From Myxococcales bacterium (lineage in GTDB: Bacteria > Myxococcota_A > Polyangia > Nannocystales > Nannocystaceae): DNA of 64,000 bases. The DNA is taken from NCBI GenBank assembly GCA_020633295.1, contig JACKDW010000006.1:398181-462180 (forward strand), written 5' to 3'. Shown here piece by piece: positions 2,196 to 61,174 of the stretch (position 1 is its first letter; each line of letters starts with the position of its first letter). Under the pieces are notes generated by a model. It was not told the origin of the DNA and did not search any database. It saw only the letters and a list, made by a program, of their open reading frames with translations. Both the position numbers and the translations under genes were made by a program.

Positions 2196-2208
2196 CAATT
2201 TCAGCGTC

Positions 2209-5049: not shown

Positions 5050-5099
5050 AGCATATTAAACCTCGCGCGCCGGTCGTCGCGCGCGTCCCCGCGTCGTCG

Positions 5100-8596: not shown

Positions 8597-8649
8597 CGCC
8601 GTCGGGCCTGCAGGGAGGCTTACCACGACCGCCGTGTCCACCGCTTGTT

Positions 8650-19500: not shown

Positions 19501-22500
19501 CGACCTGTGGGAGGCGCTCGAGCGCGGCCTCGTGCAGGCGCTCGGCGACTCGTACAAGTACGTCGGCGCGTCCTCCGAGGGCTCGTCGACCACGCTCACG
19601 CTCCCGCACGACATCGAGTACCGCTTCGTCCACGACAAGGTGCAGCACGCCGCCTACTCGCGGCTCGAGGTCCGGCGGCGCCAGGAGATCCACCTCCGCG
19701 TCGGCCGCCTGCTGCTCGCGCGCGCCGAGTCCGAGGGCGAGGAGCTGGGCGAGCGGCTGTTCACGGTCACCGCCCACCTCGCCGCCGCCGCGCCGCTGAT
19801 CACCGCGCCGGCCGAGCGCCTCAACCTCGCGCGCCTCAACCTCGCCGCGGGCCGGCGCGCCAAGCTCGCGATCGCGTACCGCTCGGCGGTCAGCCACCTG
19901 CGCAGCGGGATCGACCTGCTGCCCGACGAGGCCTGGCGCGACCAGTACGACCTGACCTTCGCGCTGCACCGCGAGCTGATGGAGTCCGAGTACCTCGGCG
20001 GCAACGTCGAGGCCGCGCTCGTGCTGTTTCAGCCGCTCGTCGCGCGCGCGCGCACCGACCTCGAGCGCGCGCAGATCTACGAGCTGAAGGTCTCGCTCGA
20101 GACCTACCGCAAGCAGAACTCGCTCGCGCTCTCCACCGCGTTCGAGGGCCTCGCGCAGCTCGGCGTCCACCTGCCGCAGACCGCGACCGTGCCGATCGTG
20201 CTCGTCGAGTTCCTGCGCGTGCAGCTCGCCCGCCGCTGGCGCGCCGCCGACGACCTCACCGACCTCCCAGAGCTCCACGAGCCGCGCAAGACGCTGCTGC
20301 AGCGCCTGCTGACGACCGCGGTGCCCGCGGCCTACTTCGTCGACACCAAGCTCGCCGCGCTGATCCTGCTCAAGAGCGCCCGGATCTCGCTGCGAGATGG
20401 CTACACGGACATGTCGGCCTTCGGCGTCGCCGGCTACGGCTTCGTGCTCTCCGGCGTGTTCGGGCGGCACGACGAGGCCTACGAGTTCGGCAAGCTCGCG
20501 CTGCGCCTCAACGAGCGGTTCAAGAACTCCTGGCTCGACGTCAAGCTCGACTTCCTCGTCGGGCTGTTCATCGCCAACTGGGTCGAGCCGTTCGCCGCCG
20601 CGCGCCGCCGGCTGCACCGCAGCTACCAGCAGGGCATCCAGCAGGGCGACCTCGCGTTCGCGCTCTACAGCGGCGTCATGTACATCAACGTCGCGCTCGT
20701 CGAGGGCCAGACGGTCGACCGGATCTACGGGCTCGCCGAGAGCATGGAGCCGACGGCGCAGCGCGCCGGCGAGATCGACGGCATCGCGATGCTCAGCTCG
20801 ATCAAGCGCATGTGCATGGCGCTGCGCGGGCAGACGCTGCAGCCGACGCGCTTCGACACCGTCGACTGGGCCGAGGCCGACTTCGCCGCGGGCCTCGACG
20901 ACAAGACGACGCCGCAGGCGATGTTCTATTACAACCTGCACAAGCTGATCGCGCTGTACCTGTTCGGCGAGTTCGAGGCGGCGCGCGAGGTCAGCGGGCG
21001 GCTCGAGGCGCGGCTCGAGACGGTGCTCGCGCAGCCGGCCAGCGCGGACTTCGTGTTCTACGACGCGCTCACGGCCGCGGCGCGCTACGGCGCGGCGTCC
21101 CGCAGCGAGCGCCGGCGGATCCGCACCACGCTCGCGCGCGCGACCAAGAAGCTGCGCCGCTGGAGCGGCTTCTGCCCCAACAACTTCGCGGCGCGCCTGC
21201 TGATCGTCCGCGCCGAGCAGTCGCGCGTGCTCGGCCGCCGCGACGCGTTCATCCTCTATAACCAGGCGATCCAGACCGCGCGCACGCACGAGTCGATCAT
21301 CTGCGAGGCGCTCGCGCTCGAGATGACCGCACGCTACGCGCTCACCGCGGGCTACGAGGTCGCGGTCGAGTCCTACGCGACCGCGGCCTGCGACGCCTAC
21401 CGCCGCTGGGGCGCGCGCGCCAAGGTCGAGCAGCTCAGCCAGGAGTTCGGCGACCACTTCCCGATCTACGCGCTGCCGCCCGCGCCCGAGGAGCCCGAGG
21501 AGACGCAGTCGTCGTCCGCGACCATGACCTCGACGGCGCAGGACCTCGACCGTGTCAGCCGCACCTTCCAGTCGATCGTCGACGACCTCAACCTCGACGG
21601 CCTGCTCACCAACATGACGCAGACGCTCACCGAGTTCACCGGGGCGCGGCACTGCGTCGTGCTGCTCGAGCGCGACGGCGCGCTGACGGTGGAGGCCGAG
21701 GGCGGGCTCCCGCCGATGTCGGTGCAGCTCGGCCGCGGGCGCGCGCCGTCAGACTCCACGCTGCTGTGCGCGGCGATCGTCAAGTACGTCGCGCGCACCC
21801 ACGAGCCGGTGCTGCTGACCAACGCCGCCGAGAGCGGCGACTTCACGAGCGACCCCTACATCAAGAGCGGCGCCGTGCGCTCGGTGCTGTGCGCGCCCAT
21901 GCTCCTGCGGCGCGACGATCTCGTCGGCGTGATCTACCTGGAGAACGGGCTCGCGCCGGACGTGTTCCGCCACGAGCACGTCGCCGCGCTCGCGCAGCTG
22001 CTGCCCCCGGTCGCGGTCGCGATCCGCACGGCGATGCGCGCCAATTCGTACCGGCGCTTCGTGCCCCACGCCGCGCTCGACCGGCTCGCCGAGCGGGTCA
22101 AGCGCGAGCTGCGTCCCGGCGATCACGTCAACATCGAGGGCACCGTGCAGGCGCTTTCGCTGCGGGGCACCGCCGCGATCGTCGGCGACGGGCGCGGCAT
22201 GCGGAGCGCGCTCGCGCTGCTCAACCGCTTCTTCGACGCGGCCGCGATGATCGTCGAGCGACACGGCGGCTTCGTCGCCGAGCGCTCCAGCGACTCGCTG
22301 ACCGCCTGCTACCCCGGGGGCTCAGGCCCCGCGCTGACCGCCGCGACCGAGCTGCTCGAGATCGGCCACGAGCTGTTCATGCACCGCGAGCACGCGAGCC
22401 GCTACGCCGGCGTCGACATCGGCATCGCGCTGCACGCTGGCCCCGTGACCGTCGGCGCCGTCGGCAGCGACCGCGAGCTCTCGCTCGTGATGCTCTCGCG

Positions 22501-22786
22501 CACGGTGACGATCGCGCGCGCGATGGCGCGGCGCTGCGACAGCTACGGCGCCTCGCTGATCCTGAGCGAGGCCGTCAAGGCGCAGCTCCCCGAGACAGGG
22601 CACCTCGAGATCCGCGCGCTCAACCGCCTCGACCCCGACGACGGCGGCGGGTCGATCCAGGTCTACGAGGTGTTCTCGGCGGTCCCTGGCGAGGGCGAGC
22701 CGATGAAGAGCTTCGCGGAGCGCTTCGCCCAGGACCTCCACGAGTCGCTCGAGGAGCCGCGGGCGGAGCTCCCAGGCGAGCGCTGA
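16583..22786 (+). CDS. Giant multidomain signalling protein: Ser/Thr kinase, second kinase-like domain, P-loop NTPase (AAA/STAND-like), helical/TPR-like region, GAF domain, and a C-terminal adenylyl/guanylyl cyclase homology domain that looks degenerate
   Basis: Kinase 1 has GEGGMGVVYAARD, VAIKVV, HCDFKPHNVLVD, DFGLAR, GTPAYMSPEQ. Kinase-like 2 has VHAEGLVHKDISPDHILL, DFDVASEI, GTLAYMAPEQ. Walker A LIAGPSGIGKS follows the LYGRE motif. GAF-like segment about aa 1600-1790. C-terminal fold resembles class III cyclases (GIALHAGPVTVGAVGS) but lacks the FxDIxGFT metal-binding signature. Confidence 0.85.
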   Translation: MSPPPPAAGSAPPERPEHPTQIGHFSVLYTLGEGGMGVVYAARDNKLGRKVAIKVVHKAPGEESRGRARMLREAQAMARLSHPNVVQVYEVGEHDGQVYVAMEFVKGRTLRDWQREATRSWKEVLERYIEAARGLAAAHKKGLVHCDFKPHNVLVDDEEGRVRVLDFGLARTYHQQSVNVKARKAAALGAQRAGLETLETSMTMSDMVTGTPAYMSPEQYQGKRATAFSDQFSFCVALYEGLYGARPFSGQNPAALAFQVSAGEIEDPPRDAKVPSWLRRVIVRGLAPDPEERWPSMEALMSALQRDAGAARRYRVRIEGINIERFKLLSSAGYVQLKPFRDGQATVIYAGAREEDHLPVLVKLLRNEAPTPSELARMRRERALLERFDDPGVLRVVKLEHHGRGLALVLENFSAASLRQRIVETGGLAIDEFLRFATRAVDALAVVHAEGLVHKDISPDHILLHRASGRVALMDFDVASEISEEAPSVVDPDQLEGTLAYMAPEQTGRMNRKVDYRSDYYALGVTFYEALTGQLPFETSHPMELVHAHIALAPTPPSEVSANVPEALSRIILRLMSKTAEDRYQSADGLRLDLERCAREWERHGWIEDFPPGEHDTSDNFQIPQKLYGREHSVNLLMAAFERAAGGSTEVMLIAGPSGIGKSAVIREVHKPIVARRGYFISGKSDPLSRDVPYTAVIQAFQDLFRQLLRESDDSLQRWREMLLDALGGQGHVLIDVLPELELVIGAQPPVSQLPPTESANRFRTLFRKLVQVFARDEHPLVMFLDDLQWSDLAALKLIEQLAIDNELSDLLILGAYRDHEVPPDHLLNQIVRAIEESGRVVARHTLQPLDLDHTAALVRDTLTPSPRDTSDLVRVIQTKTEGNPFFVRVLLSSLYEQGVLRFDRSAGGWSWDDAEVASARISDDIVALMSARIGELAPATRNAIEHAACLGNRFTLELLAIITEQEPRIVARDLWEALERGLVQALGDSYKYVGASSEGSSTTLTLPHDIEYRFVHDKVQHAAYSRLEVRRRQEIHLRVGRLLLARAESEGEELGERLFTVTAHLAAAAPLITAPAERLNLARLNLAAGRRAKLAIAYRSAVSHLRSGIDLLPDEAWRDQYDLTFALHRELMESEYLGGNVEAALVLFQPLVARARTDLERAQIYELKVSLETYRKQNSLALSTAFEGLAQLGVHLPQTATVPIVLVEFLRVQLARRWRAADDLTDLPELHEPRKTLLQRLLTTAVPAAYFVDTKLAALILLKSARISLRDGYTDMSAFGVAGYGFVLSGVFGRHDEAYEFGKLALRLNERFKNSWLDVKLDFLVGLFIANWVEPFAAARRRLHRSYQQGIQQGDLAFALYSGVMYINVALVEGQTVDRIYGLAESMEPTAQRAGEIDGIAMLSSIKRMCMALRGQTLQPTRFDTVDWAEADFAAGLDDKTTPQAMFYYNLHKLIALYLFGEFEAAREVSGRLEARLETVLAQPASADFVFYDALTAAARYGAASRSERRRIRTTLARATKKLRRWSGFCPNNFAARLLIVRAEQSRVLGRRDAFILYNQAIQTARTHESIICEALALEMTARYALTAGYEVAVESYATAACDAYRRWGARAKVEQLSQEFGDHFPIYALPPAPEEPEETQSSSATMTSTAQDLDRVSRTFQSIVDDLNLDGLLTNMTQTLTEFTGARHCVVLLERDGALTVEAEGGLPPMSVQLGRGRAPSDSTLLCAAIVKYVARTHEPVLLTNAAESGDFTSDPYIKSGAVRSVLCAPMLLRRDDLVGVIYLENGLAPDVFRHEHVAALAQLLPPVAVAIRTAMRANSYRRFVPHAALDRLAERVKRELRPGDHVNIEGTVQALSLRGTAAIVGDGRGMRSALALLNRFFDAAAMIVERHGGFVAERSSDSLTACYPGGSGPALTAATELLEIGHELFMHREHASRYAGVDIGIALHAGPVTVGAVGSDRELSLVMLSRTVTIARAMARRCDSYGASLILSEAVKAQLPETGHLEIRALNRLDPDDGGGSIQVYEVFSAVPGEGEPMKSFAERFAQDLHESLEEPRAELPGER

Positions 22787-46698: not shown

Positions 46699-47856
46699 TC
46701 AGGTCGTCACGCGCGGGCGGTCACCCGCGCCGCTGTCGGCGGGATCGAGCAGCTCGGTCGGCGAGACGTCCTCTTGCATGTCCGCGTCCGCCTCGCGCAT
46801 CGGGTCCTCGAGCGAGCGCGCGGCGATGTCGGGGTGCAAGAACCATCGACTCGCGGTGCGCTCCGAGAGCATGAAGTCGAACAGCAGGCCCGCGACCTTC
46901 TCGCGGCCGCTCGGCGACGGGTGCACGCCGTCCCAGATCACGTCCTCGCGCACGTAGGTCAGGCCGTTGTCGTTGCGCGGGACGACGCCGTCAGCCCACA
47001 GGTACGGGCCCCACTGCAGCCACGGGCTGCGCACCGGTCCCTTGGCGGGGTCGAAGTTGAGCTCGGGCTTGCCCGCGATCTGATCGCGAATCAGCCACTT
47101 CACCGCGAAGCCGCTCTCGTACGCGTGTGGTTCGGGGCTCAGCGGGATCTCGGAGTACCCGCCGTAGGCGCGGCTCGAGAGGTACGCGACCGCGAGGTTC
47201 GGGTAGCGCTCCGCGAGGATGTGCATCGTGTTGACGAGGCACGCGTAGAACTTGTGAACCTCGATCGGGAACTCCTGCGACGGCTGCTTGACCGAGCTCT
47301 TGATCCACACGGCCTGGACCTGCGCGTTGGTCAAGCCCGACTGCTCCACGCGGCGGTCGATCGTCGGCCAGTAGTTCGATCGCAGCGTCTCCATGATCTC
47401 CGCGGACTTCCGCGGCTGCGCGCCGTTGACGACGACGAGCGCCGGGTTGACCGCTTCGAACTCCGAGACCAGGTGCATAAACACCTGAAACTCGCTGTTC
47501 GTGTTGGACAGGCCGATGCCGACGAGCCCGATCTTCCCGTCGTCCGCCGGCGCGCCGTCCGGGCCGCGCGGGACGACGCCTACGGCCCGCTGCAGACCGG
47601 CGCCGTAGTGCTCCGGCGGCGGGTGATTCTGCCCGCCGGGATAGAGGCCGCCCTCCTCACCGCGATACTCGCTCCCCTTGAGCTCGTTGATCGGCGAACA
47701 ACCAATAGAGTCACGCGGCGGATGCTTTCGCGCGAATTCCGCCATGAACTTTGGTCGTCGCTTCGGTGCCCGATTCAAGGTCATCAGCGAGTCGCACCAA
47801 ACGATACCAGATGAACGAAGGGGCACATCGCGCGCCCCTCCCCATCCCGTAGCCAC
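46699..47856 (-). CDS. Putative hydrolase (possibly SGNH/GDSL-like esterase); last gene of the carrier-protein operon
   Basis: GLVGIGLSNTNSEF block; balanced composition. Spaced 26 nt from the upstream acyl-CoA-dehydrogenase gene. Start is uncertain (alternative MAEFARK at about 47745). The function call is weak. Confidence 0.45.
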   Translation of the reverse strand: MATGWGGARDVPLRSSGIVWCDSLMTLNRAPKRRPKFMAEFARKHPPRDSIGCSPINELKGSEYRGEEGGLYPGGQNHPPPEHYGAGLQRAVGVVPRGPDGAPADDGKIGLVGIGLSNTNSEFQVFMHLVSEFEAVNPALVVVNGAQPRKSAEIMETLRSNYWPTIDRRVEQSGLTNAQVQAVWIKSSVKQPSQEFPIEVHKFYACLVNTMHILAERYPNLAVAYLSSRAYGGYSEIPLSPEPHAYESGFAVKWLIRDQIAGKPELNFDPAKGPVRSPWLQWGPYLWADGVVPRNDNGLTYVREDVIWDGVHPSPSGREKVAGLLFDFMLSERTASRWFLHPDIAARSLEDPMREADADMQEDVSPTELLDPADSGAGDRPRVTT

Positions 47857-47881
47857 CCCGTCGCGTCGGGGCCCCGCCTCC

Positions 47882-49033
47882 TCACAGGCCGAGCCATCGC
47901 GCGATTATATTGCGCTGGATCTCGGATGTCCCGGAGTAAATGGTGCTGGCGACGGAATCGCGCAGGACTCTCTCTACGCCTGACTCCGACATGTACCCGT
48001 AGGCGCCCATGATCTGGACCGTGTCCAGCGCCGACTGGATGAGCGCCTCGCTGACGAACACCTTCGTCATCGAGGCTTCCAACGTGGCGTTTCGGCCCTG
48101 ACTCAAGCGCCATGCTGCACGATACGTGAGCAAGCGCGCGGCCTCGAGCTTGATGCGCATGTCGGCGACACGGTGGGATATCGCCTGGTACTTGCCGATC
48201 TTGTTGCCGAACTGCGAGCGTGAGCGCGCGTGGTCGACCGCCCGCTTCAGCAGCCGCTCGATCTGCCCGACGTGGCTGGCGAAGATCCCGACGCGCTCCC
48301 AGTCCATCGAGCGCGTGAACTCGGCCGAGCCGGCGCCCTCGACCCCGAGCACCGCGGAGGCCGGCACGTAGGCCTCGTCGAACACGAGCTCGCCCATGGG
48401 AGATGTCCGAAGGCCCATCTTCGACATCGAGCGCGTCGCGGTCACGCCCTTGGTGTCGGCGTCGACGAGGAAGGTGGTGATGCCGCCGTGGTAGCCCTTG
48501 TCCGGGTCGGTCACCGCGAACACGACGTACAGGTCGCCGATCGGCCCGTTGGTGCTGAAGGTCTTCGAGCCCGTGATGCGGTAGCCGGCGCCGTCTCGGA
48601 CCGCGCGCATCTTCATCGAGAACGCGTCAGAGCCGGAGGACGGCTCGGTCATCCCGTTGACCGCGATCAGGCTGCCGTCCGAGAGGCCCGGCAGGTAGCG
48701 CCGCCGCTGCTCCTCGTTGCCGGACTTCCAGATCGGCACCACGCAGGAGAACAGGTGCGCGCCGAGGGAGAACACGAGCCCGCCGTCGTTGCAGTACAGC
48801 CCGAGCGCCTCGAACGCTATGATCGCGCTGAGCGCGTCGAGCCCGGCGCCGCCGTACTTGGTCGGCACCACGAGCCCCGGGAGCCCCATCTCGCCGCACT
48901 TCCGCCACAGCTCCCTGGAGAAGGTCTGACTCTCGTCGCGCGCGAGCGCAGAGCCGTCGTTGAGCTGCTCCTGGACGAAGCGCTTGATCGTGCGCTTCAG
49001 CTCTTTCTGCTCTCGGGTGGGGTTGAAGTCCAT
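47882..49033 (-). CDS. Acyl-CoA dehydrogenase family flavoprotein (candidate aminoacyl-carrier-protein dehydrogenase)
   Basis: The 383 aa have typical ACAD blocks: GMTEPSSGSDAFS, YRITGSKTFSTNG, IYSGTSEIQRNIIAR. Confidence 0.85.
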   Translation of the reverse strand: MDFNPTREQKELKRTIKRFVQEQLNDGSALARDESQTFSRELWRKCGEMGLPGLVVPTKYGGAGLDALSAIIAFEALGLYCNDGGLVFSLGAHLFSCVVPIWKSGNEEQRRRYLPGLSDGSLIAVNGMTEPSSGSDAFSMKMRAVRDGAGYRITGSKTFSTNGPIGDLYVVFAVTDPDKGYHGGITTFLVDADTKGVTATRSMSKMGLRTSPMGELVFDEAYVPASAVLGVEGAGSAEFTRSMDWERVGIFASHVGQIERLLKRAVDHARSRSQFGNKIGKYQAISHRVADMRIKLEAARLLTYRAAWRLSQGRNATLEASMTKVFVSEALIQSALDTVQIMGAYGYMSESGVERVLRDSVASTIYSGTSEIQRNIIARWLGL

Positions 49034-49164
49034 CGCAGACCCTCTCGCCGTCTGAGGCTACACGCTCGCGCACCGTCCCGTAAGCCCGCGCGCCGCGGCC
49101 GTGTCAGCGCGGCCGCGCGGCGTGCCCTCGGCGTCGTGGACAGGGACCGCTCGCACGCCTCGCC

Positions 49165-50766
49165 TCACCCGCGCCGCCCGAGCGCTTGATAGTCGACCTT
49201 GTCGGTCGAGGTCTTTGGCAGCCGGTCGAGCACCTCGACTCGATCCGGGAGCATGTAGAGCGGCACGTGCTGTGCGCAGAATTGCTTGACGCCGAGCAGC
49301 GTCAGCGGCGTCGTCGGCTCCTTGGCGACGAGGAACGCGGTGATCAGCACCCCCGCGTCCTCGTCCGGGGTCGCCAGCACGGCGGCCTCGGCGACGTCAT
49401 CGTGGCGGTAGAGCGCCGACTCGATCTCGCCGAGCTCGACCCGGTACCCGCGCCGCTTGACCATGCGATCGCGGCGCCCGACGAACACGAGCGCGCCCTC
49501 CTCGTCGGGGTACGCGATATCGCCCGTTCGATACCAGCCGTCCGCGGTAAACGCAGCAGATGTTCGTTCGGGCAGGTTCCAGTACCCGCGCGTGACCCCG
49601 GGGCCAGACACCTGGACCTCGCCCTCCTCGCCCGCCGCGACCGGCTGTCCGTCCGCCTCCGCGAGCCGCACCGAGAGGTGCGAGCAGGCCCGCCCGATCG
49701 GGTACGGCTGCTCGCGCGCCTCCGGGACGCGCGCCGGGATCTCGTGGTAGGTGCAGACGTTGGTCTCGGTCGGGCCGTAGAGGTTGAAGTAGCGCGGCGC
49801 CGGCCAGCGAGCCTGGAGCGCGCGCAGGTGCTTGACGGGGAACACCTCGCCGGCGAACAGCACGAGCCGCAGCGCGGCGAAGTCGTGCCGCTGCAGGCGC
49901 CCGTAGTGGGCGAGCATCGTCAAGATCGACGGCGCCGAGTACCAGACCGAGATCCGGTGCTGGGCGATCCACGCGCCGAGCGCCCGCGGCTCGCGGGCCG
50001 CCAGCGGATCGACGAGCACGAGCGCCGCGCCCGCGCTCAGGCACACGTAGAGGTCGAGGATCGAGAGATCGAAGTGCAGCGGCGCGTGCGATGAAAACTT
50101 GTCCTCGGGGACAGGTTCTATGATCTCGCGAGCCCACTCGACGAAGCTGACCGCGTTCTCGTGCGAGAGCATGACGCCCTTCGGGCGCCCGGTCGAGCCC
50201 GAGGTGTACAGGATGTACGCGAGCTCCTCGGGGCCGCAGGCCGCCGAGGCCGCGTCGCCGCGCGCGCCCTCGATCCCGGCGAGCGCGGCCCGCAGACCGT
50301 CGCCGCCGCCGACCTCGGCGAGCGTGATCAGCCGCGTCCCGGCGCCCTCGCCCGCGCCCTCGCCCGCGCCGCGCAGCCCCGCGAGCTCCTCGCGCAGCGC
50401 CGGCGCGAGCGCGGCCTCGACGAACACGGCCGCGAGCTCGCAGTCATGGACGATGTAGGCGCCGCGGGACATCGGCGCGCCCGGATCGACGGGGACGTAG
50501 GCCGCGCCCGCGCGCAGGATCCCGAGCAGCGTCGCGATCGCGTCGATCGACTTCGCCATGCAGAGCCCGACGCGCGCGCCGCGGCCGATGCCGAGCGCGC
50601 GCAGGGTCTCGCATGTTTGTTTGGACAGCTCGTCGAGCTCGCGGTAGGTCACGCGCCGGTCGACCCGCGGCTCCTCGACCGCCACGCGATCCGGGTGCGC
50701 CGCGGCTGCCTGTTCGAACAGGGCGTGGAGCGGCTCTCGCTGCCACCTGGGCGCCGCCATCACCAC
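49165..50766 (-). CDS. Stand-alone adenylation enzyme (NRPS A-domain-like, amino acid-AMP ligase)
   Basis: LAYILYTSGSTGRPKGV (A3), FDLSILD (A4), NLYGPTE (A5), GEVQVSGPGVTRGY, YRTGD (A7), GRRDRMVKRRGYRVELGEIE (A8), LPKTSTDKVD (A10). Confidence 0.85.
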   Translation of the reverse strand: MVMAAPRWQREPLHALFEQAAAAHPDRVAVEEPRVDRRVTYRELDELSKQTCETLRALGIGRGARVGLCMAKSIDAIATLLGILRAGAAYVPVDPGAPMSRGAYIVHDCELAAVFVEAALAPALREELAGLRGAGEGAGEGAGTRLITLAEVGGGDGLRAALAGIEGARGDAASAACGPEELAYILYTSGSTGRPKGVMLSHENAVSFVEWAREIIEPVPEDKFSSHAPLHFDLSILDLYVCLSAGAALVLVDPLAAREPRALGAWIAQHRISVWYSAPSILTMLAHYGRLQRHDFAALRLVLFAGEVFPVKHLRALQARWPAPRYFNLYGPTETNVCTYHEIPARVPEAREQPYPIGRACSHLSVRLAEADGQPVAAGEEGEVQVSGPGVTRGYWNLPERTSAAFTADGWYRTGDIAYPDEEGALVFVGRRDRMVKRRGYRVELGEIESALYRHDDVAEAAVLATPDEDAGVLITAFLVAKEPTTPLTLLGVKQFCAQHVPLYMLPDRVEVLDRLPKTSTDKVDYQALGRRG

Positions 50767-50770
50767 CCCC

Positions 50771-51079
50771 TCAGGCGCCGCTGGCCTGCTTCTTCAGGAT
50801 GAACGCCGCGATCCTCGAGATCGTGCTGAGGTGCGTCACGAGCACGTCCTCGGGCAGGATCTCGATGTCGTACTCATCCTCGAGCCAGGAGAACATCTTG
50901 AGCGCCGCCATCGAGTCGATCGTCCCGCTCTCGACCAGCGAGGTCTCGTTCGTCAGCTGCGACTCGTCCTCGCCCTGGAAGAACTCCTCGAGGATGTACC
51001 CCCGGACCTCCAGCCTGACCCTATCCAACTTCGCCGAACTCTCGTCCATGTCGTCTGCTCCACTCGCCGGTTGACCCAC
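50771..51079 (-). CDS. Peptidyl/acyl carrier protein
   Basis: The GTIDSMAALK motif marks the phosphopantetheine-attachment serine in a roughly 90-100 aa protein. It lies 4 nt upstream of the adenylation gene, and the start may be the internal ATG at 51049. Confidence 0.7.
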   Translation of the reverse strand: MGQPASGADDMDESSAKLDRVRLEVRGYILEEFFQGEDESQLTNETSLVESGTIDSMAALKMFSWLEDEYDIEILPEDVLVTHLSTISRIAAFILKKQASGA

Positions 51080-51403
51080 TAGCGGCGCCGGTCGTTTACA
51101 CGGTTCAAAGATTATGTGCTGCGTATACCCAATTGGAAAGGGTAGATGACGCGTGCACGGTCGCGCTGCTCAGCTACGCGCCTCCGCGCCGCGCGGGATC
51201 GAGACCGACGGGGCCGCCAGGCCCCGCCGCGCGCTTCCATGCACACGCACGAGTGCGCCGCGCGTGCGCGCCAAGACAGAACGTGTCCGTTCGTTCACGC
51301 GCGAGGTTCCGCTAGATGCCGCCGCGTGAAGTTGCTACCATCGTCACCTGTCGCGCAGCCTCGCTCGCGCGATCGCTGGAGGGCGACCGGCTCGCGCACC
51401 ATC

Positions 51404-52387
51404 ATGACCCAAATCCTCGACCGGATCGACGTGCACTCCCACGGCTTCCCGGAGGCCTACCTCCGCAGCCTGTGCAAGCGATATCCCGAAAAGGCGTCGT
51501 TGCAAGAGCCCTGCGACGGGAAGCCGCTGATCGCGTACTGGTCGCGCGCGCCGCTGCCGGCCTGGGACTCGGCGACGCGCCTGCGGGAGATGGAGCGCGA
51601 CCAGGTCCAGACCGAGGTCCTCTCGGCGCCGACGATCTATACGCACCTGGACGACGACAGCAGCCTGTTCTGTCGCATGCTCAACGACTTCCAGGCCGAG
51701 CTCGCGCGCATCGCCCCGGGGCGCTTTCGCTCGTTCGTGCACCTGCCCGTGAACTCGATCCCCGAGTCGCTGAAGGAGCTCGCGCGCTGGAAGGACCGCT
51801 CCGAGGCCGCGGGCGTCGTGTTCGGCTCGAACATGGGCGGCGTGTACCCCGGCGACCCCTCGCTGCTGCCGATCTGGGAGGCCATCGACAAGCTGATGAT
51901 GCCGGTGCTGATCCACCCGGTGACGCCGCCGGCGCGCTACGGGCCGGTGGTCCCGACGATCCTGCAGTTCCCGCTCGACTCCGTCACCGCGGCGACCTCG
52001 ATCCTCTACTCGGGCCTGTTCGAACGGTTCCCGGGCCTCAAGATCATCATCCCGCACCTCGGCGGCTTCCTCCCGTTCGTGCGCGAGCGCCTCGACATGG
52101 CCGCCGACATCGCCGGGTTCCCGCCCGGGCAGGGGCAGGACCTGCCGAAGAACCCGAGCGCCTACGTCGATCGCTTCTACTACGATATGGCGCAGGGGTT
52201 TAATCGCCCGGCGTTTGACTGCTGCCGCGCGGTCGCCGGCATCGACCACATCCTGTACGGCACGGATCACTTCTTCCTCGAGGACCCGTGGCGCCCGCGG
52301 CTCAACGCGTTCATCGATGACCTCCCGCTCAGCCTGCGCGATCGCGTCGCGATCCTCCGCGGCAACGCTGAGCGGATCCTCCGCTGA
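51404..52387 (+). CDS. Amidohydrolase-2 family protein (ACMSD-like metal-dependent decarboxylase/hydrolase)
   Basis: N-terminal IDVHSHGFP (HxH metal site), HLGGFLPF, YGTDHFF (conserved Asp), 327 aa. Start at the internal ATG 51404; the upstream part of the track ORF is Arg-rich. Confidence 0.75.
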   Translation: MTQILDRIDVHSHGFPEAYLRSLCKRYPEKASLQEPCDGKPLIAYWSRAPLPAWDSATRLREMERDQVQTEVLSAPTIYTHLDDDSSLFCRMLNDFQAELARIAPGRFRSFVHLPVNSIPESLKELARWKDRSEAAGVVFGSNMGGVYPGDPSLLPIWEAIDKLMMPVLIHPVTPPARYGPVVPTILQFPLDSVTAATSILYSGLFERFPGLKIIIPHLGGFLPFVRERLDMAADIAGFPPGQGQDLPKNPSAYVDRFYYDMAQGFNRPAFDCCRAVAGIDHILYGTDHFFLEDPWRPRLNAFIDDLPLSLRDRVAILRGNAERILR

Positions 52388-52487
52388 GCGCCTCGCGCCG
52401 CGCTGACCCGCGCGCGGACGAGTGCTTTCACGCCCAAGGCCCGGCTGGTAGGCTTGCGTCCGCGTGCTCCCGCGCGCCAGAGCGACC

Positions 52488-54185
52488 ATGCACGAGCTGA
52501 GCGAGCCGGACGTCCTCGTGGTCGGCGCGGGCCCCACCGGGCTCGCGCTGGCCTGCGACCTCGCCCGACACGGCGTCGTGTGTCGCGTCGTCGAGCGCGC
52601 GAGCGCGCCGGTCTCCCGCCGCGGCACCGCGGAGCTGCTGCCGCGCACGCAGGAGGTGCTCGAGAGCTTCGGCGCCCTCGCGCCGCTCGAGGAGCGCGCC
52701 CAGGCGCTGCGCTCGATGAACCTCTACGGGCACAGCGGCGCGCGACGGCTCGCGCGCCTCGAGTACGCGCAGCTCGACACCCCGTTCCCGCGCGTCCTCG
52801 GCGTCGCGCCGGCGACGGTCGCCGCGACGCTGCGCGCGCGCGCGTGTGAGCTCGGCGCGCGCGTCGACTTCGGCGTCGAGCTCGCATCGCTCGAGCTGGG
52901 CGACGGCGACGAGCCCACGCGCGCGCGCCTCCGACACGCGGACGGGCGTGACGAGACCGCGCGCGCGCGCTGGGTCGTCGGCTGCGACGGCGCCACCAGC
53001 GTCGTGCGGGCGGCGATCGACGTCCCCTTCGAGGCGCGCTCCGAGACCGAGCGCTACTGGTTCGCCGACGTCGATCTCGACTGGGAGATGCCCGAGGACG
53101 ATCAGTACGTGTTCCTGGGCGAGCGCGGCTTCGTCATGATCGCGTCGCTGCCGGGCGAGCGCCGCGCCCTGATCACGCTCGAGAACCCGCCGCCGGACGA
53201 GGAGCCCTCGCTCGAGCGCCTGCAGGAGCTGCTCTGTCGCAGAGTGCCGATTCGCGGCGAGCTGAGCGCGCCGCGCTGGCTCGCGCACGAGCGCGTCCGC
53301 CCGCGGCTCGCCGCCCGCTTCCGCGTCGGGCCCGTGTTCCTCGCCGGCGACGCGGCCCACGTCCACAGCCCGCTCGGCGGTCACGGGCTCAACGCCGGCG
53401 TCCAGGACGTCCACAACCTCGCGTGGAAGCTCGGGCTCGTCCGGCGCGGGCTCGCGCGCCCCGCCCTGCTCGACAGCTATGACGAAGAGCGCCGCCGCGC
53501 GAGCCTGCACATCTCGCGCGGAGATCCAGAGCGGACGAGCCGCGCGCTGCGGCTGCGCGGCTCCATCGCCCGGGGGCTGCGCGACGCGCTGACGCCGGTG
53601 CTCGCCAACATCGAGACCATCAACAGGCGCGTCGCGCGAGCGTTCAGCGAGCTCGAGTTCACCTACCGCGAGAGCTCGCTCGTCGAGGAGCACCACACCC
53701 CGCTGCTCGGCGCGCGCCTGACCCACAGCGACCGCAGCGAGCAGGCGAGCCTGGCCGATCGCCGCGAGTTCGCGCTCGCGCCCGCGGCCGGGGACCGCGT
53801 CCCGCACGCGCGCGTCACCACCGACGCGGGCGACGAGCGCAGCCTGTTCGACCTGACCCGAGGGACATTTCACACGCTGCTGCTGTTCGACGGCGACGCG
53901 CCGACCCCCGAGGGCTATCGCAACCTCGCCGAGATCGGCAAGGCGATCCGCGATCAGTACGGCGACCTCGTGCGCACGCACGTCGTCATCCCCGCCGCCG
54001 AGGCGCCCGCGACCCTGCCGTGGGAGGGCGCGGTGATCCTCGATCATGACGGCGCGCTGCACCGCCGCTTCGGCGCGCGCGCGGAGTGCCAGTACCTGAT
54101 CCGCCCCGACCGCCACGTCGCGTTCCGCAGCCAACCCGCGGATCGCCACGTGCTCGTCGAGTACCTCAAGCGAGTGCTGATCTAG
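52488..54185 (+). CDS. FAD-dependent aromatic-ring monooxygenase (PheA/TfdB-type hydroxylase)
   Basis: VLVVGAGPTGLALACDLARHG (GxGxxG), GCDGATSVVR, GDAAHVHSPLGGHGLNAGVQD, and a C-terminal thioredoxin-like extension. Confidence 0.8.
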   Translation: MHELSEPDVLVVGAGPTGLALACDLARHGVVCRVVERASAPVSRRGTAELLPRTQEVLESFGALAPLEERAQALRSMNLYGHSGARRLARLEYAQLDTPFPRVLGVAPATVAATLRARACELGARVDFGVELASLELGDGDEPTRARLRHADGRDETARARWVVGCDGATSVVRAAIDVPFEARSETERYWFADVDLDWEMPEDDQYVFLGERGFVMIASLPGERRALITLENPPPDEEPSLERLQELLCRRVPIRGELSAPRWLAHERVRPRLAARFRVGPVFLAGDAAHVHSPLGGHGLNAGVQDVHNLAWKLGLVRRGLARPALLDSYDEERRRASLHISRGDPERTSRALRLRGSIARGLRDALTPVLANIETINRRVARAFSELEFTYRESSLVEEHHTPLLGARLTHSDRSEQASLADRREFALAPAAGDRVPHARVTTDAGDERSLFDLTRGTFHTLLLFDGDAPTPEGYRNLAEIGKAIRDQYGDLVRTHVVIPAAEAPATLPWEGAVILDHDGALHRRFGARAECQYLIRPDRHVAFRSQPADRHVLVEYLKRVLI

Positions 54186-54192
54186 CCGCCGC

Positions 54193-55068
54193 TCAGCCCG
54201 GGTCCGCGACGGAGACGGGGCGCGAGAGCACCTCGGCGAGCGCGCGCGGGCGGTCCTCGATCATCGGCACGGTCTCGACGCAGCGCAGCTCGAGCGGGCG
54301 CGCGGGCGGCTGACGCAGCGCGAGCGCGACGCGGTGCTCGTGGCCAGGTCGCAGCAGGCGAAAGCTCCACTGCTCCGGGCGCTCGCTCGCGAGCGTGCCC
54401 GAGAAGCGGATGCGGACGCCGTCGGGCGCGACCGTCCGGCGCCCGTCGCCGAGCGCGTAGGCGAAGTCCCGCAGCGGGATCGCAAGGCCCATCCCGCGGG
54501 CCTTGATGTAGGCCTCCTTGAGCGTCCAGTAGTCGAAGAACCGCCGCCCCGCGAGCGCCTCGCCGCCCCGCGACGCGAACGCGCGCAGCTCCTCGACCTC
54601 GGGCGGCGCGAAGAAGTGCTCGGCGATGTTGAGCCCGCTCGTGCGCCGGGTGAGGTTCTCGACGTCGACGCCGAGCTCGCCGCTGCCGACCAGCATGACC
54701 GCGAGCCCGTCCGTGTGCGACAGGTTAAAGCGCAGCGCCCCGAGCCCGTGGCGCAGGTCGAGATCGGGGCGGCCGTGCTCGTTGAAGGTGAAGCGCAGCG
54801 CCGCGGGCGAGCAGGCGCCGCCCGCGTAGCGAGCGAGCGTGACGCGGACCAGCGCGCGCGCGACGAGGAACAGGTGTCGGTGCCGCGCGAACAGGAACCG
54901 GCCGTGCCGCGCGCGCTCGTCGTCGTCGAGCAGCGCCGCGTAGCGCTCGAGCAGGTCGGGGTCGACGATGTCGCGCGGGCGCGTCCACCAGACGTGGAGC
55001 GCCCCCGGCCCAGGCGGCTCCACGGCGTCGCCCGGGCGGCGCGCGTCGGCATCGGTCGCGCGTGACAC
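54193..55068 (-). CDS. Sfp-type 4'-phosphopantetheinyl transferase
   Basis: FNLSHTDGLAVMLV, GVDVE and WTLKEAYIKARG (W..KEA..K) motifs, about 230-290 aa. Confidence 0.75.
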   Translation of the reverse strand: MSRATDADARRPGDAVEPPGPGALHVWWTRPRDIVDPDLLERYAALLDDDERARHGRFLFARHRHLFLVARALVRVTLARYAGGACSPAALRFTFNEHGRPDLDLRHGLGALRFNLSHTDGLAVMLVGSGELGVDVENLTRRTSGLNIAEHFFAPPEVEELRAFASRGGEALAGRRFFDYWTLKEAYIKARGMGLAIPLRDFAYALGDGRRTVAPDGVRIRFSGTLASERPEQWSFRLLRPGHEHRVALALRQPPARPLELRCVETVPMIEDRPRALAEVLSRPVSVADPG

Positions 55069-55195
55069 GGCGGGTGATGGTCGCTGGCGCGACGCGTACC
55101 GGTCAAGCGAGGCGCGGGCGCTTGCCAGCGACGCGCTCGCGGGTCACGCTCCCCTGGCCCGCCGGCGCCGCCTGGCCCCCGCGCGCACGCGACCC

Positions 55196-56287
55196 ATGCC
55201 CGCTCCCACCGCTGTCGACAAACCCGGCGCGCTGCTCATTAACCTCGGCACGCCCGAGGCGCCCGAGCCCGGCCCTGTCCGCCGATACCTGCGCGAGTTC
55301 CTCTCGGATCCGCGCGTCATCGACATCAACCCGATCAGCCGCTGGCTGCTCCTCAACCTCGTCATCCTGCCGTTTCGGCCCGCGCGCTCGGCCGCCGCCT
55401 ACCGCAAGGTGTGGACGCCCGAGGGCTCGCCGCTGCTCGTGCACGGGCGCGCGCTCACGGCCGAGGTTCAGCGCCGGCTGCCCGACTGGGAGGTCCGCCT
55501 CGCCATGCGCTACGGCCAGCCCTCGCTGCGCGACGGGCTCGCGGCGCTGCGCGAGGCCGGCTGCGATCGCGTGGTCGCGCTCCCGCTGTACCCGCAGTAC
55601 GCCGCGAGCAGCACCGGCTCGACGATCGAGGCGCTCTACCGGATCGCCGGCGAGATGTGGAACACGCCCTTCATCACGCTCGTGCCGCCGTTTTATGAGC
55701 ACCCGGGGTTCATCGAGGCGCTCGCCGAGCGCGGGCGCGCGGTGCTCGAGGAGCTGCGCCCCGACCACGTGCTGTTCAGCTTCCACGGGCTCCCGCTGCG
55801 CCACCTGACCAAGGGCGACCCCGCCGGGCACTGCAAGGCCGACGCGGGCTGCTGCGCGCGGATCTCTGCGGTCAATCAGAATTGCTACCGCGCGCAGTCC
55901 CACGCGACCGCGCGGGCGCTGGCCGCCGCGCTCGGCGTCGCTGAAGATGGCTATACGGTCAGCTTCCAGTCGCGGCTCGGGCGGACCGAGTGGATCAAGC
56001 CCTACACCGACGAGCTGCTGCCCGCGCTCGCGCGCCAGGGCGTCAAGCGGCTCGCGGTGTTCTGCCCGGCGTTCGTCGCCGACTGCCTCGAGACGCTCGA
56101 GGAGATCGGGATGGCCGCGAGCGAGTCGTTCCGCGCGGCCGGCGGGGAGCGCCTCGAGCTCGTGCCGGCCGTGAACGCGACGCCGCGCTGGGCCGACGCC
56201 GTCGCCGCGCTGCTGCGCGCGAGCGAGCCGCCCGCGAGCCGCCGGCAGCTGCCCATGGTCACCGGCGCGGCGGCGGGCGCGACCTGA
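55196..56287 (+). CDS. hemH: Ferrochelatase
   Basis: LLINLGTPE, REFLSDPRV, LPLYPQY, FSFHGLP (catalytic His), EW..PYTDE. Start at ATG 55196. Confidence 0.85.
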   Translation: MPAPTAVDKPGALLINLGTPEAPEPGPVRRYLREFLSDPRVIDINPISRWLLLNLVILPFRPARSAAAYRKVWTPEGSPLLVHGRALTAEVQRRLPDWEVRLAMRYGQPSLRDGLAALREAGCDRVVALPLYPQYAASSTGSTIEALYRIAGEMWNTPFITLVPPFYEHPGFIEALAERGRAVLEELRPDHVLFSFHGLPLRHLTKGDPAGHCKADAGCCARISAVNQNCYRAQSHATARALAAALGVAEDGYTVSFQSRLGRTEWIKPYTDELLPALARQGVKRLAVFCPAFVADCLETLEEIGMAASESFRAAGGERLELVPAVNATPRWADAVAALLRASEPPASRRQLPMVTGAAAGAT

Positions 56288-59218: not shown

Positions 59219-61174
59219 CTACTTCTTGCGCGGGACCTCGAACTTCGTCACGACGCCCTCCTCGGGGTCGATCTCGACGTTCTCGCTGTTGTGGTTGGAC
59301 TTCTTCGTCGTGGTCTTGCGCAGCTTGAACGACAGCGGCTTGGGCTTCGAGCCCTCCGCGATCTTCACGGTCTTCTTCTCGGTGCGGTAGCCCGAGCGCT
59401 TGACCACGACCGTGTGCTCCCCCGGCGCGAGCTCGACGGTCAGCGGCGTCTTGCCGCGCTTGTCGTCGTCGACGCTGACCTCGGCGCCGTCCGGGTTGCT
59501 CTCGATCTTGTAGGCGACCAGCGCGGGCTCCGGCGGCGTGTCGCCCGTCGGATCGCCCGTCGGATCGACCTCGTCGCCCGAGTCCGCGACCGTGTCGCCG
59601 GTCTCCTCGGGCGTCGCGCTGCTGTCTGCGGCGGCCGCCGCCGCCGCGAGGCTCGCCTTGATCGCCTCGGCGCGCGCGCTCGCGGTCGCGTTGTCTGCGT
59701 CGCGCGTGAGCACGTCGAGGTACAGCGCGAGGGCGTCCTCGAGCTCGCCCGCGGTCTCCTTCGCCTGGGCCTGCGCGAGCAGCTCGGCCACGGGATCCGG
59801 ATCCGGATCGAGCGTCTCGCCGGCGGCGTCCGCCTCCCCGCTCTCGCCAGGCAGCGCCGAGCTCACGTTCGTCGCCGCGACCGGCGTCTTCGCGTCGGCC
59901 GGGATCGGCGTCTTCGCCGGCGGGCCGCGCTTCGTCACCATCGGCCCGTTCGTCGTCGGGCCCGCCGCGTTGTTGAGGAAGGGCAGCTGCCCCTGGCTGT
60001 ACAGGTACGCGCCGACGCCCCCGAGCGCGAGCAGCAGGAGCACGACCACGAGGCCGCCGCCGGAGCCCTTCGACTCACTCGCCTCGGGGCTGTGGGCCTC
60101 GATGACGGGCGCGGGCGTCTCCTCGCTCACCGGGTCCGGCGGCGACGTCAGCTCTGGCGCGGGCTCGGACGCGGCGCGCACGGGCGCGCTCGGCGGGCGC
60201 GCGACGACGATCGGCGCGACCGGGAGAGACTCGCGGGCCGCGATCGGCGTCGCGACCGCGACCACGCCGGCGGGCCGGGGCTTCGCGGGCTCAGCCTTCG
60301 GCAGGCGGAACATGGCCGCAGGGACAGAATCAATCAGGTACTCGACGATCTCGTTGGCGTCGATCGGCCGTTCGTTCGGGTTCTTCGACAGGCACGCGCG
60401 CACGAGCTCGACGACGCCGTCGGGCACGTCGTGGCCCGGCCGCAGCACCGACGCGAGCGGCGTCGGCTGATCGTTGATGATCTTGTAGAGCACCTGCGCG
60501 TCGGTGCCCTGGAACGGCTTGCGGCCCGCGAGCATCGTGTAGAACAGCACGCCGATCCCGTAGACATCGGTGCGCGGATCGAGCGGGCCCTGCTGCACCT
60601 GCTCCGGGGCCCAGAACCCTGCGGACGCCTCCGCGTTCGCCTGGTCCGCGACATCGCCGAAGATCTGCAGCAGCCCGAGATCGCAGATCTTGACGAAGTT
60701 CGCGCGGCCCTTGTGCTCGATCAGCAGGATGTTCGACGGCTTGAGCGCGCGGTGCAGCAGCCCGCGCGCGTGCGCGGCCCCCATCGCCTTGAGGACCTGC
60801 GCGGCGATCGGCACGAACACCTCGATCGAGAGCGGCGCGTTGCGACCGAGGAACTCGTCCAGCGTCGTGCCCTCGACGTACTCGACGACGACGTACGCGC
60901 CGAACTCGGTCGAGAAGCCGAAGTCGTGGACCGCGGTGATGTTGGGGTGCTCGAGCCCCTGCAGCGCCTTGGCCTCGCGCTCAAACCGCGCGCGCGACTC
61001 TGGCGTGCTAGCGACCGCCTCGGGCAGCAGCTTGACGGCCACGGTCCGGTGAAGCGTGCGGTGGCTCGCCAGGTACACGCGACCCTTCACGCCCGTGCCG
61101 AGCAACCGCTCGAGCGTGTAGTGCGAGCCAACGGTCCGCCCGAGCAGCGGATCGGCCTTGGCGGCGACCTTCAT
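59219..61174 (-). CDS. Ser/Thr kinase-like protein predicted to be a pseudokinase, with TM segment and C-terminal PEGA domain
   Basis: Kinase fold is evident (VAVKLL, APEQ, DVYGIGVLFY), but HRD is HRALKP (catalytic Asp replaced by Ala), DFG is DLG, and the Gly loop is atypical (LGTGVKGRV). TM stretch LVVVLLLLALGGVGAYLY. C-terminal PEGA-like segment TPLTVELAPGEHTVVVKRSGY. Confidence 0.75.
   Translation of the reverse strand: MKVAAKADPLLGRTVGSHYTLERLLGTGVKGRVYLASHRTLHRTVAVKLLPEAVASTPESRARFEREAKALQGLEHPNITAVHDFGFSTEFGAYVVVEYVEGTTLDEFLGRNAPLSIEVFVPIAAQVLKAMGAAHARGLLHRALKPSNILLIEHKGRANFVKICDLGLLQIFGDVADQANAEASAGFWAPEQVQQGPLDPRTDVYGIGVLFYTMLAGRKPFQGTDAQVLYKIINDQPTPLASVLRPGHDVPDGVVELVRACLSKNPNERPIDANEIVEYLIDSVPAAMFRLPKAEPAKPRPAGVVAVATPIAARESLPVAPIVVARPPSAPVRAASEPAPELTSPPDPVSEETPAPVIEAHSPEASESKGSGGGLVVVLLLLALGGVGAYLYSQGQLPFLNNAAGPTTNGPMVTKRGPPAKTPIPADAKTPVAATNVSSALPGESGEADAAGETLDPDPDPVAELLAQAQAKETAGELEDALALYLDVLTRDADNATASARAEAIKASLAAAAAAADSSATPEETGDTVADSGDEVDPTGDPTGDTPPEPALVAYKIESNPDGAEVSVDDDKRGKTPLTVELAPGEHTVVVKRSGYRTEKKTVKIAEGSKPKPLSFKLRKTTTKKSNHNSENVEIDPEEGVVTKFEVPRKK

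Follow-up and report, generated by a model that had tools for sequence, protein, structure and literature searches.

The conversion of L-proline into a carrier-bound pyrrole is known from cassettes such as PltF/PltL/PltE, RedM/RedO/RedW, PigI/PigG/PigA and Bmp4/Bmp1/Bmp3, in which a stand-alone proline-activating adenylation (A) enzyme, a carrier protein (CP) and an acyl-CoA dehydrogenase homologue (ACAD), with a WER motif and without the glutamate of YEG, are encoded by tightly linked genes. These proline-to-pyrrole cassettes are known almost only as suppliers of starter units for polyketide synthases (PKSs) and non-ribosomal peptide synthetases (NRPSs). Here, a gene block with the same kind of triad, tightly linked as well, was analysed in a 64,000-nt stretch of DNA, hereafter the window, of a Myxococcales bacterium from the Nannocystaceae (assembly GCA_020633295.1, contig JACKDW010000006.1, positions 398,181 to 462,180), where it stands alone. 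Its six genes (46699-54185), coding for an SGNH-fold protein, an ACAD, an A enzyme, a CP, an amidohydrolase-2 and a flavin adenine dinucleotide (FAD) monooxygenase, combine known chemistry in an undescribed gene arrangement, and we lean towards reading them as a self-contained pathway that works without an assembly line and turns L-proline into a small, free metabolite of the pyrrole type.

Comparison with described systems

Compared with the four cassettes named above, the window ACAD is 40-43% identical and stays below the PigA and RedW equivalog cut-offs, and the SGNH-fold protein, the ACMSD-like amidohydrolase-2 and the PheA/TfdB-type hydroxylase that accompany the triad are not found in characterised cassettes. 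Pfam scans covered the cassette, its flanks and the large open reading frames (ORFs) beyond the first 16.5 kb of the window, up to its 3' end, and gave no ketosynthase (KS) or condensation (C) domain. The absence of chain-extension domains, claimed in an earlier note made from the sequence of the window alone, thus holds for the ORFs scanned. Among these ORFs, no halogenase, second CP or acyltransferase was seen as a downstream acceptor either, nor was any such acceptor, KS and C domains included, within 10 kb of the cassette in its syntenic relatives. As for AnaC/AnaD/AnaB, which produce the anatoxin-a starter by converting the prolyl group on its acyl carrier protein (ACP) into pyrroline-5-carboxyl-ACP, the window shares their catalytic signature and AnaB is the best match of its ACAD, whereas they feed a type I PKS and none was found in the scanned window ORFs.

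In chalkophomycin biosynthesis, ChmF releases N-hydroxypyrrole-2-carboxylate from the type II carrier protein ChmI (PMC10849742). ChmJ/ChmI/ChmH, together with ChmF, resemble the model proposed here for the window in that proline on a free-standing CP is oxidised by a flavoenzyme, a second flavoenzyme follows and a dedicated, stand-alone hydrolase sets free a pyrrole-2-carboxylic acid (PMC10849742). However, the second flavoenzyme is an ACAD-like N-oxygenase in that system and a group A monooxygenase in the window, the hydrolase has an alpha/beta fold instead of an SGNH fold, and the acid is re-activated for an NRPS, while the window has a decarboxylase-type enzyme and no NRPS was found in it. 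In picolinate catabolism, the amidohydrolase-2 PicC decarboxylates 3,6-dihydroxypicolinate, an N-heteroaromatic 2-carboxylate, after ring hydroxylation, in a Zn-dependent, non-oxidative reaction (bioRxiv 10.1101/457895); the PicB/PicC pair of hydroxylase and amidohydrolase-2 is like the window pair by gene pairing and by the reactions proposed here for the latter, although it acts on a pyridine, belongs to a catabolic pathway and involves no CP.

The proline triad

ORFs were called with the guidance of the G+C content at third codon positions (GC3), and their translations were searched against Pfam, NCBIfam and PDB sequences. The seven ORFs that the earlier note had placed in 46699-55068 were located at those positions (Table 1), and the domains that it had assigned agree with Pfam, except for its hydrolase, which has no Pfam match. 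The motifs that it quoted, GTIDSMAALK, HFDLSILDLY, FNLSHTDGLAV and WTLKEAYIKARG, are all present in the translations.

The A enzyme passes the NCBIfam model TIGR01733 (366.7 bits for a cut-off of 317.4), and its best single-domain PDB match is PltF (6O6E), over the full length and with 356.7 bits; LgrA outscores PltF only by summing two A domains. When the specificity region (158 aa) was searched alone against PDB, PltF scored 143 bits, PigI (7THN) 86 and DltA about 74, with 51.6% identity between the region and PltF. All specificity positions are the same as in PltF 6O6E and give the code D-L-L-(Y/S)-L-A-L-V-C-K, which was also read in 47 of the 61 related A domains collected. Motifs HFDLS(I/V)LD, WYS(A/V)PS, LFAGE and NL(Y/F)GPTETNVC are aligned between both proteins, and the A10 lysine is present in the window protein. 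Since its specificity positions are identical to those of PltF, the A enzyme should load L-proline.

Concerning the carrier protein, it scores 29.8 bits with Pfam PP-binding (cut-off 20.8), and the serine predicted from the motif to receive the phosphopantetheine lies in GTIDSMAALK, in a GxxDS context. Its best PDB matches are type II peptidyl carrier proteins and include PltL (25 bits), the Bmp1 ACP and PigG. The best NCBIfam match, "ACP_for_OlsHI" (71.6 bits for a cut-off of 130), was set aside as an uninformative resemblance, because the main text of the OlsH/OlsI paper never says "acyl carrier protein" and that pathway uses a GH3-like enzyme.

The ACAD obtains 433.2 bits with the PigA model and 423 bits with the RedW model of NCBIfam, while the next ACAD model gives 292. 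Its scores mark it as a member of this family, a relative and not an orthologue of PigA or RedW. The four best PDB matches are AnaB (4IRN; 354.6 bits), PigA (5ZW0; 301.5 bits), a PigA mutant (6AF6) and Bmp3 (6CXT), with identities of 43% to AnaB, 40% to PigA and 41% to Bmp3; chain 6CXT_B is labelled butyryl-CoA dehydrogenase, yet it is the pyrrole-forming Bmp3. Glu246, in SMDWER, is aligned to the PigA residue mutated to alanine in 6AF6, and Ser367 takes the place of the canonical ACAD glutamate (YSGT instead of YEGT). In a neighbour-joining (NJ) tree, built without support values, the ACAD falls inside a prolyl-type clade to which the generic ACADs form the outgroup; W-E-R/K and (Y/F)SGT are found in all members of this clade and are absent from the generic ACADs of the tree.

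The triad had been put forward in the earlier note as a candidate aminoacyl-S-CP dehydrogenation cassette, and the three lines of evidence bear this out: the code is of the amino-acid and not the fatty-acyl type, the ACAD groups with AnaB, PigA and Bmp3 and not with generic acyl-CoA dehydrogenases, and the CP serine has its proper context. The core reading, from proline to pyrrolyl- or dehydroprolyl-S-CP, is thus supported at the level of sequence, and the possibility that the A enzyme and ACAD handle fatty-acyl groups was rejected on account of the PltF-identical pocket and the place of the ACAD in the prolyl-type clade. As the ACAD is about equidistant from the two-electron AnaB and the four-electron PigA and Bmp3, its sequence does not separate pyrrole from pyrroline.

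Amidohydrolase-2 and monooxygenase

The amidohydrolase-2 scores 106 bits with Pfam Amidohydro_2, and its best PDB matches are ACMSD (about 90 bits), to which HxH, His, His and Asp align. Against ACMSD 4IFK, the segments RIDVHSH, LIHP, PHLGG and GTDH, which hold the metal ligands and the catalytic histidine, are aligned, in agreement with the ACMSD-like label it had been given. Weak matches to LigJ were obtained as well, and the family also holds lactonases and hydratases, e.g. LigI and LigJ. A dinuclear oxygenase of the ARO type was considered and rejected, motif D-x-P-H-x-D/E being absent. As for the monooxygenase, FAD_binding_3 (220 bits) and Rng_hyd_C (33.5 bits) are its Pfam domains, which confirms the earlier assignment as a PheA/TfdB-type FAD hydroxylase; rifampin monooxygenase and PgaE are its best PDB matches (about 140 bits), and its sequence has GAGPTG and GDAAH but not WxWxIP, the motif of halogenases. 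By analogy, it is proposed as the ring hydroxylase.

Six loci with amidohydrolase-2 homologues (47-59% identity) were sampled outside the myxobacterial clade, and two of them, L027 (69% GC) and L113 (40.5% GC), carry an ACAD, A enzyme and CP triad with the proline code next to an amidohydrolase-2 that is 55-56% identical to the window protein. On L027, a metagenome contig, 384-8993 code for a halogenase with WxWxIP, a WER-type ACAD (46% identity), an A enzyme (DLLYSLALVCK), a CP and an alpha/beta-hydrolase, and the amidohydrolase-2 gene is 2.7 kb from the halogenase end of the cassette. The L027 ACAD gene is frameshifted near its C-terminus. On L113 (GCA_051861145.1; 2567-13401), one strand carries all the genes, namely those for two halogenases, an ACAD, an A enzyme (DILYSLALVCK) and a CP together with those for a pyridoxal-phosphate (PLP) enzyme, a methyltransferase, an alpha/beta-hydrolase and the amidohydrolase-2, which is sister to the window clade in an NJ tree.

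The window, L027 and L113 therefore share one logic, i.e. a proline-code triad, a ring-modifying FAD enzyme, a hydrolase and an amidohydrolase-2 of the same subfamily. They differ in the WxWxIP halogenases and alpha/beta-hydrolases of L027 and L113 and in the PLP-dependent and methyltransferase genes of the latter. The amidohydrolase-2 had been described in the earlier note as foreign to the known cassettes. This stands for the characterised ones, while the subfamily does recur beside proline-type cassettes in these two unrelated genomes, in clusters that are uncharacterised. Because proline-type triads are rare, yet recur with the amidohydrolase-2 in three very different genomes, the enzyme is probably functionally linked to the triad and a true member of the pathway. 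Our best guess, by analogy with PicC, is that it would act as a decarboxylase of (substituted) pyrrole-2-carboxylate.

The SGNH-fold protein

The longest ORF at 46699-47856, which had been labelled a putative hydrolase, gave no match in Pfam (GDSL included), NCBIfam or PDB sequences. It has 3403 homologues, themselves without a Pfam domain, and Ser117 (GLSNT), Asp309 and His312 (DGVHPS; ORF numbering) are invariant both in 14 and in 70 sequences. An AlphaFold2 model (mean predicted local distance difference test, pLDDT, of 92.5) was compared with PDB by Foldseek: almost all of the top 20 matches are SGNH enzymes, with low TM-scores (0.32-0.36 on the query). Esterases or acyltransferases of this fold stand at the top, among them 6NJC, 6SE1 (the OafB SGNH domain) and 3SKV (the salicylyl-acyltransferase SsfX3), a sialate O-acetylesterase being one of the enzymes matched. 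The earlier label is thereby refined to an SGNH fold. The non-myxobacterial homologues aligned have hydrophobic, signal-peptide-like N-termini, which the cluster-linked myxobacterial copies do not have. The modelled structure thus points to a distant SGNH-fold enzyme, turned cytoplasmic, from a large uncharacterised family, for which a role as a thioester-cleaving off-loader, either hydrolase or acyltransferase, would be reasonable by analogy.

Extent of the gene block

The same arrangement is found in four metagenome-assembled genomes (MAGs) of Polyangia or Nannocystaceae, the closest relatives of the locus (L006 to L009, also fetched as L001, L003 and L005), in which conservation within the block is highest for the ACAD (73-95% identity) and the amidohydrolase-2 (71-89%). 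In one of them (L007:8447-12286), the A gene is 45% identical and has a disrupted code (DLLRS-PLLHK), the SGNH-like gene is split over several frames and the monooxygenase gene is absent; the block may be decaying there, or the assembly may be poor. In two relatives, a conserved ORF of 130 aa without Pfam match lies between the monooxygenase and amidohydrolase-2 genes (L003:4775-5167; L005:4859-5251). It has no counterpart in the window, where these genes are 76 nt apart.

Two further loci show where the block ends. On L109, the gene order is symporter, PARG, phosphopantetheinyl transferase (PPTase) and ferrochelatase, and on L111 (Nannocystis bainbridge) the PPTase gene is divergently paired with the ferrochelatase gene; none of the six block genes is present on either, and the PPTases are 47-50% identical to that of the window. 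From the SGNH-like gene to the monooxygenase gene, 46699-54185 behaves as one six-gene presence/absence block. The PPTase, a HetI-like protein according to NCBIfam (109.7 bits), had been taken in the earlier note as dedicated to the pathway and closing the block. This did not hold: because its pairing with the ferrochelatase gene is kept in L109 and L111 without the cassette, the PPTase gene is an ancestral flank gene and not pathway-dedicated. As a general enzyme, the PPTase probably primes the carrier protein. The divergent PPTase-ferrochelatase pair was seen to be conserved across Nannocystaceae.

A four-gene membrane-SGNH operon in the wider family

ACADs 55-65% identical to that of the window were found in Acidobacteriota, Betaproteobacteria, Planctomycetota, Rhodothermaceae and Gemmatimonadota MAGs and in 350 metagenome stretches, mostly from soil, of which 80 loci (L029 to L108) were retained. 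In L010, L011 and L016 (Acidobacteriota, Betaproteobacteria) and in 48 of these 80 loci, most of the others being short contigs, the triad adjoins a gene for a fusion protein of about 860 aa that has some ten hydrophobic stretches and ends in a GDSL/SGNH domain. The resulting operon codes for this membrane-SGNH fusion, a CP, an A enzyme 50-60% identical to the window enzyme and with the same proline code, and a prolyl-type ACAD. No neighbour is conserved around the operon beyond these four genes, and no PPTase gene was found in these loci. Tandem double copies of the fusion gene were observed next to the ACAD gene in L031, L051 and L085 (e.g. L051:3827-6247 and 6681-9137).

In the ACAD NJ tree, the window clade is sister to the family of the four-gene operon; the clusters closest to the triad are not those of natural-product assembly lines. 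No homologue of the fusion was found in the window. Its membrane domain was considered as an MBOAT and this was left unconfirmed: neither Pfam at E<=1 nor a 27-sequence profile against PDB gave a match, and an FWRR...H motif, read by eye, is the sole support. The SGNH-like protein of the window was likewise rejected as a detached copy of the fusion SGNH domain, given that BLASTP gave no match and hhalign a probability of 0.9%, limited to the block V motif.

The sister operons, and not the window, resemble the Dlt system (DltA/DltC/DltB/DltD) with its A enzyme, small CP, polytopic membrane protein and SGNH-type domain. DltA is also among the better PDB matches of the window A enzyme, although the DltA model of NCBIfam is not reached (281 for a cut-off of 476). 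Dlt, however, has no ACAD, no membrane partner was found in the window, and the membrane domain of the sister operons was not recognised as an MBOAT. No description of the four-gene operon was found in the searchable literature, and nothing relevant was found there for the specificity code strings or for amidohydrolase-linked pyrrole cassettes.

Proposed pathway

In the proposed route, the 92-aa carrier protein would be primed by the neighbouring general Sfp-type PPTase. The PltF-like A enzyme would then activate L-proline, as its code, identical to that of the structurally characterised PltF, suggests, and yield prolyl-S-CP, after which the ACAD, with Glu246 as the base according to family signature and phylogeny, would oxidise the tethered proline either by four electrons to pyrrolyl-2-carboxyl-S-CP or by two electrons to a dehydroprolyl intermediate. 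The group A monooxygenase would hydroxylate the ring, on the carrier protein or after release, by analogy with the FAD halogenases that hold that role in L027 and L113. The cytoplasmic SGNH-fold protein would cleave the thioester, either hydrolysing it or passing the acyl group to an acceptor, a role that alpha/beta-hydrolases fill in L027 and L113 and, with ChmF, in the chalkophomycin pathway. Finally, the amidohydrolase-2 might remove the carboxyl group, as its recurrent linkage and the PicC precedent suggest. Activation and oxidation of proline are predicted with high confidence from the sequences, whereas the three later steps are tentative in the form written here. The predicted product would be either a hydroxypyrrole or a pyrrolinone, or else just pyrrole-2-carboxylate or pyrrole.

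Several observations weigh against this route. The ACAD is below the equivalog cut-offs (500 for the PigA model NF053553 and 650 for the RedW model NF045652), and the NJ tree puts it closer to the branch of AnaB, whose oxidation is of two electrons only. No triad was found at four of the six sampled amidohydrolase-2 loci (L025, L026, L028 and L112). To our knowledge, the known pyrrole-2-carboxylate decarboxylases belong to the UbiD family and not to amidohydrolase-2. PMC8379154 is consistent with that UbiD assignment. Genes for the amidohydrolase-2, the monooxygenase and the SGNH-like protein are present in 0 of the 80 metagenome loci and in none of L010 to L016; the SGNH-like family, with its thousands of homologues, is overwhelmingly not cassette-linked, and the SGNH-like gene may be transcribed from a promoter of its own. 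The monooxygenase is the least conserved member of the block, being 34-36% identical in L008 and L009 and missing from L007. Synteny within the clade alone is weak evidence, because the order of the housekeeping flanks (ferrochelatase, EVE, symporter, PilZ and class IV aminotransferase) is kept to the same degree in the four MAGs.

Alternative explanations

Of the alternatives, the first two are the main ones. The sister operons suggest an acyl-donor system, in which the SGNH-fold protein would move a pyrrolyl or dehydroprolyl group onto a lipid, sugar or polymer, with the amidohydrolase and the monooxygenase as peripheral genes. The closest triads, with the same proline code, do sit with a membrane-SGNH fusion in a Dlt-like logic and with no other conserved neighbour, their clade is sister to that of the window in the ACAD tree, and SGNH enzymes include the acyltransferases OafB and SsfX3; this explanation is nevertheless thought unlikely, since no homologue of the fusion was found in the window, hhalign shows no specific relationship between the window SGNH-like family and the fusion SGNH domain, the cluster-linked protein has no signal peptide, and the linkage of the amidohydrolase-2 to halopyrrole cassettes better fits a released acid. 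To a two-electron, AnaB-type oxidation to pyrroline-carboxyl-S-CP, as for anatoxin-a, followed by processing of a cyclic imine or enamine, we would give a minor chance. AnaB is the best PDB match of the ACAD, ahead of PigA in bits and identity, and its nearest characterised branch in the NJ tree; yet the ACAD is almost as identical to PigA and Bmp3 as it is to AnaB, that tree has no support values, the top NCBIfam scores are those of the PigA and RedW models, the FAD halogenases of L027 and L113 are of a kind acting on aromatic pyrrolyl-S-CP, and an ACMSD-type decarboxylase with an aromatic-ring hydroxylase would better suit an aromatic acid.

A starter supplier in the style of DKxanthene or pyoluteorin, making pyrrolyl-S-CP for a PKS or NRPS elsewhere in the genome, would have the architecture of most characterised cassettes (review PMC8857579). 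Myxobacteria are rich in PKS/NRPS genes, and the contig is at least 515 kb long, of which the window takes up only 64 kb; in this view, the other four genes would be unrelated neighbours, for instance from aromatic catabolism or, for the PPTase, housekeeping. We find this distinctly improbable in view of the scanned window ORFs and of the 10-kb surroundings of the cassette in the four syntenic relatives, both without KS or C domain, of the 80 metagenome loci, where only the membrane fusion is conserved beside the triad (individual neighbours taken without domain scan), of the six genes being present or absent as one block, and of the recurrence of the amidohydrolase-2 with such cassettes. As to a system not based on amino acids, with the A enzyme as a fatty-acyl or aryl-AMP ligase and the ACAD as an acyl-ACP dehydrogenase like MbtN, generic models do score well (PRK06187, 289 bits) and the MbtN model is a weak match; it can hardly be credited when the A enzyme passes the TIGR01733 cut-off and has the pocket of PltF, with the Asp to which the amine of the substrate binds, and when the ACAD is without the canonical Glu, groups with the prolyl-type enzymes and obtains only 66 bits with MbtN.

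Gene coordinates and genomic setting

The features of the block and of the sister operon are listed in Table 1. Three genes most likely start downstream of the first codon of their longest ORF: the amidohydrolase-2 gene at 51404 and not 51146, according to the calls in L001, L003 and L005, the carrier-protein gene at 51049, according to its orthologues, and the SGNH-like gene at 47784 (M25), because its orthologues have the common N-terminus MxLNxxPxRKPKFM. The spacings given in the earlier note are exact for the 4 nt from the carrier-protein gene to the downstream A gene and for the following 131 nt; the third one is 25 nt for the longest ORF, not 26, and becomes 97 nt between the ACAD and SGNH-like genes with the start at 47784.

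Table 1. Location of the genes and other features of the proline cassette and of the related four-gene operon.
Feature	Position	Strand	Remarks
SGNH-fold protein, uncharacterised family	46699..47784	-	361 aa from M25; longest ORF to 47856 (385 aa)
ACAD-fold FAD enzyme, predicted prolyl-S-carrier-protein dehydrogenase	47882..49033	-	Pfam Acyl-CoA_dh_N/M/1
Stand-alone adenylation enzyme, predicted L-proline-specific, PltF-like	49165..50766	-	Pfam AMP-binding + AMP-binding_C
Stand-alone carrier protein	50771..51049	-	92 aa from M11; longest ORF to 51079; Pfam PP-binding
Intergenic region separating the divergent carrier-protein operon and amidohydrolase-monooxygenase pair	51050..51403	.	sigma-70-like match within
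Amidohydrolase-2, ACMSD-like, metal-dependent type	51404..52387	+	327 aa; Pfam Amidohydro_2; longest ORF from 51146
Group A flavoprotein monooxygenase (PheA/TfdB or PgaE type)	52464..54185	+	573 aa; Pfam FAD_binding_3 + Rng_hyd_C
Sfp-type 4'-phosphopantetheinyl transferase	54193..55068	-	Pfam ACPS + AASDHPPT_N; conserved flank, outside variable block
Four-gene operon (other genomes)	L010:5501-11149; L011:5518-11146; L016; 48 loci of L029-L108		

Two sigma-70-like promoter matches were found in 8.9 kb, for 0.3 expected. One is located at 51139-51111 (-), immediately upstream of the carrier-protein gene, and the other, a strong one (10/12 positions), at 47904-47932 (-), within the 3' end of the ACAD gene and upstream of the SGNH-like gene. 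Beyond the PPTase gene, the longest ferrochelatase ORF (54968-56287, +) overlaps the 5' end of that gene, and the size of its orthologues (338-356 aa) suggests a later start near 55220. The GC3 is 0.90-0.96 within the block vs. 0.91-0.99 in the flanks, and thus gives no signal of a recent horizontal transfer of the block.

The window has a G+C content of about 72% and is rich in Ser/Thr kinases and DUF4215 proteins, with PilZ and vault-protein homologues as well. A hidden PKS or NRPS was rejected, since its 2067-aa ORF (16583-22786, +) is a kinase, a multidomain protein with two Pkinase stretches and AAA_16, TPR-like and GAF domains, and the scanned ORFs are without KS or C. TPR-linked and PEGA-linked Ser/Thr kinases are encoded at 26789-29935 (-) and 59219-61174 (-), and an 829-aa protein with a major-vault-protein shoulder (Pfam MVP_shoulder, 98 bits) and repeat domains at 30758-33247 (-); a similar vault-type gene is present in the related locus L110.

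Significance

The locus carries a practical lesson, namely that an adjacent PPTase is not necessarily dedicated to the pathway beside it. If the proposed route is true, it would provide a short genetic path from proline to free, ring-functionalised pyrroles, and would assign a function to an amidohydrolase-2 subfamily that also occurs beside halopyrrole-type cassettes. The sister operon would represent a new type of surface acylation that depends on a carrier protein.

A bolder and rather doubtful proposal joins two claims: that the amidohydrolase-2 subfamily is an unrecognised, metal-dependent, non-UbiD decarboxylase of ring-substituted pyrrole-2-carboxylates, and that the triad belongs to a widespread, undescribed family with a Dlt-like operon as its main form. 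Were the first one true, this enzyme would have turned proline cassettes into producers of free pyrroles, hydroxylated in the myxobacterial clade and halogenated in L027 and L113. Were the second one true, the membrane-SGNH acyltransferase would transfer a pyrroloyl or dehydroprolyl group made from proline to a polymer outside the cytoplasm, and the window cassette would represent a cytoplasmic re-wiring of that system.

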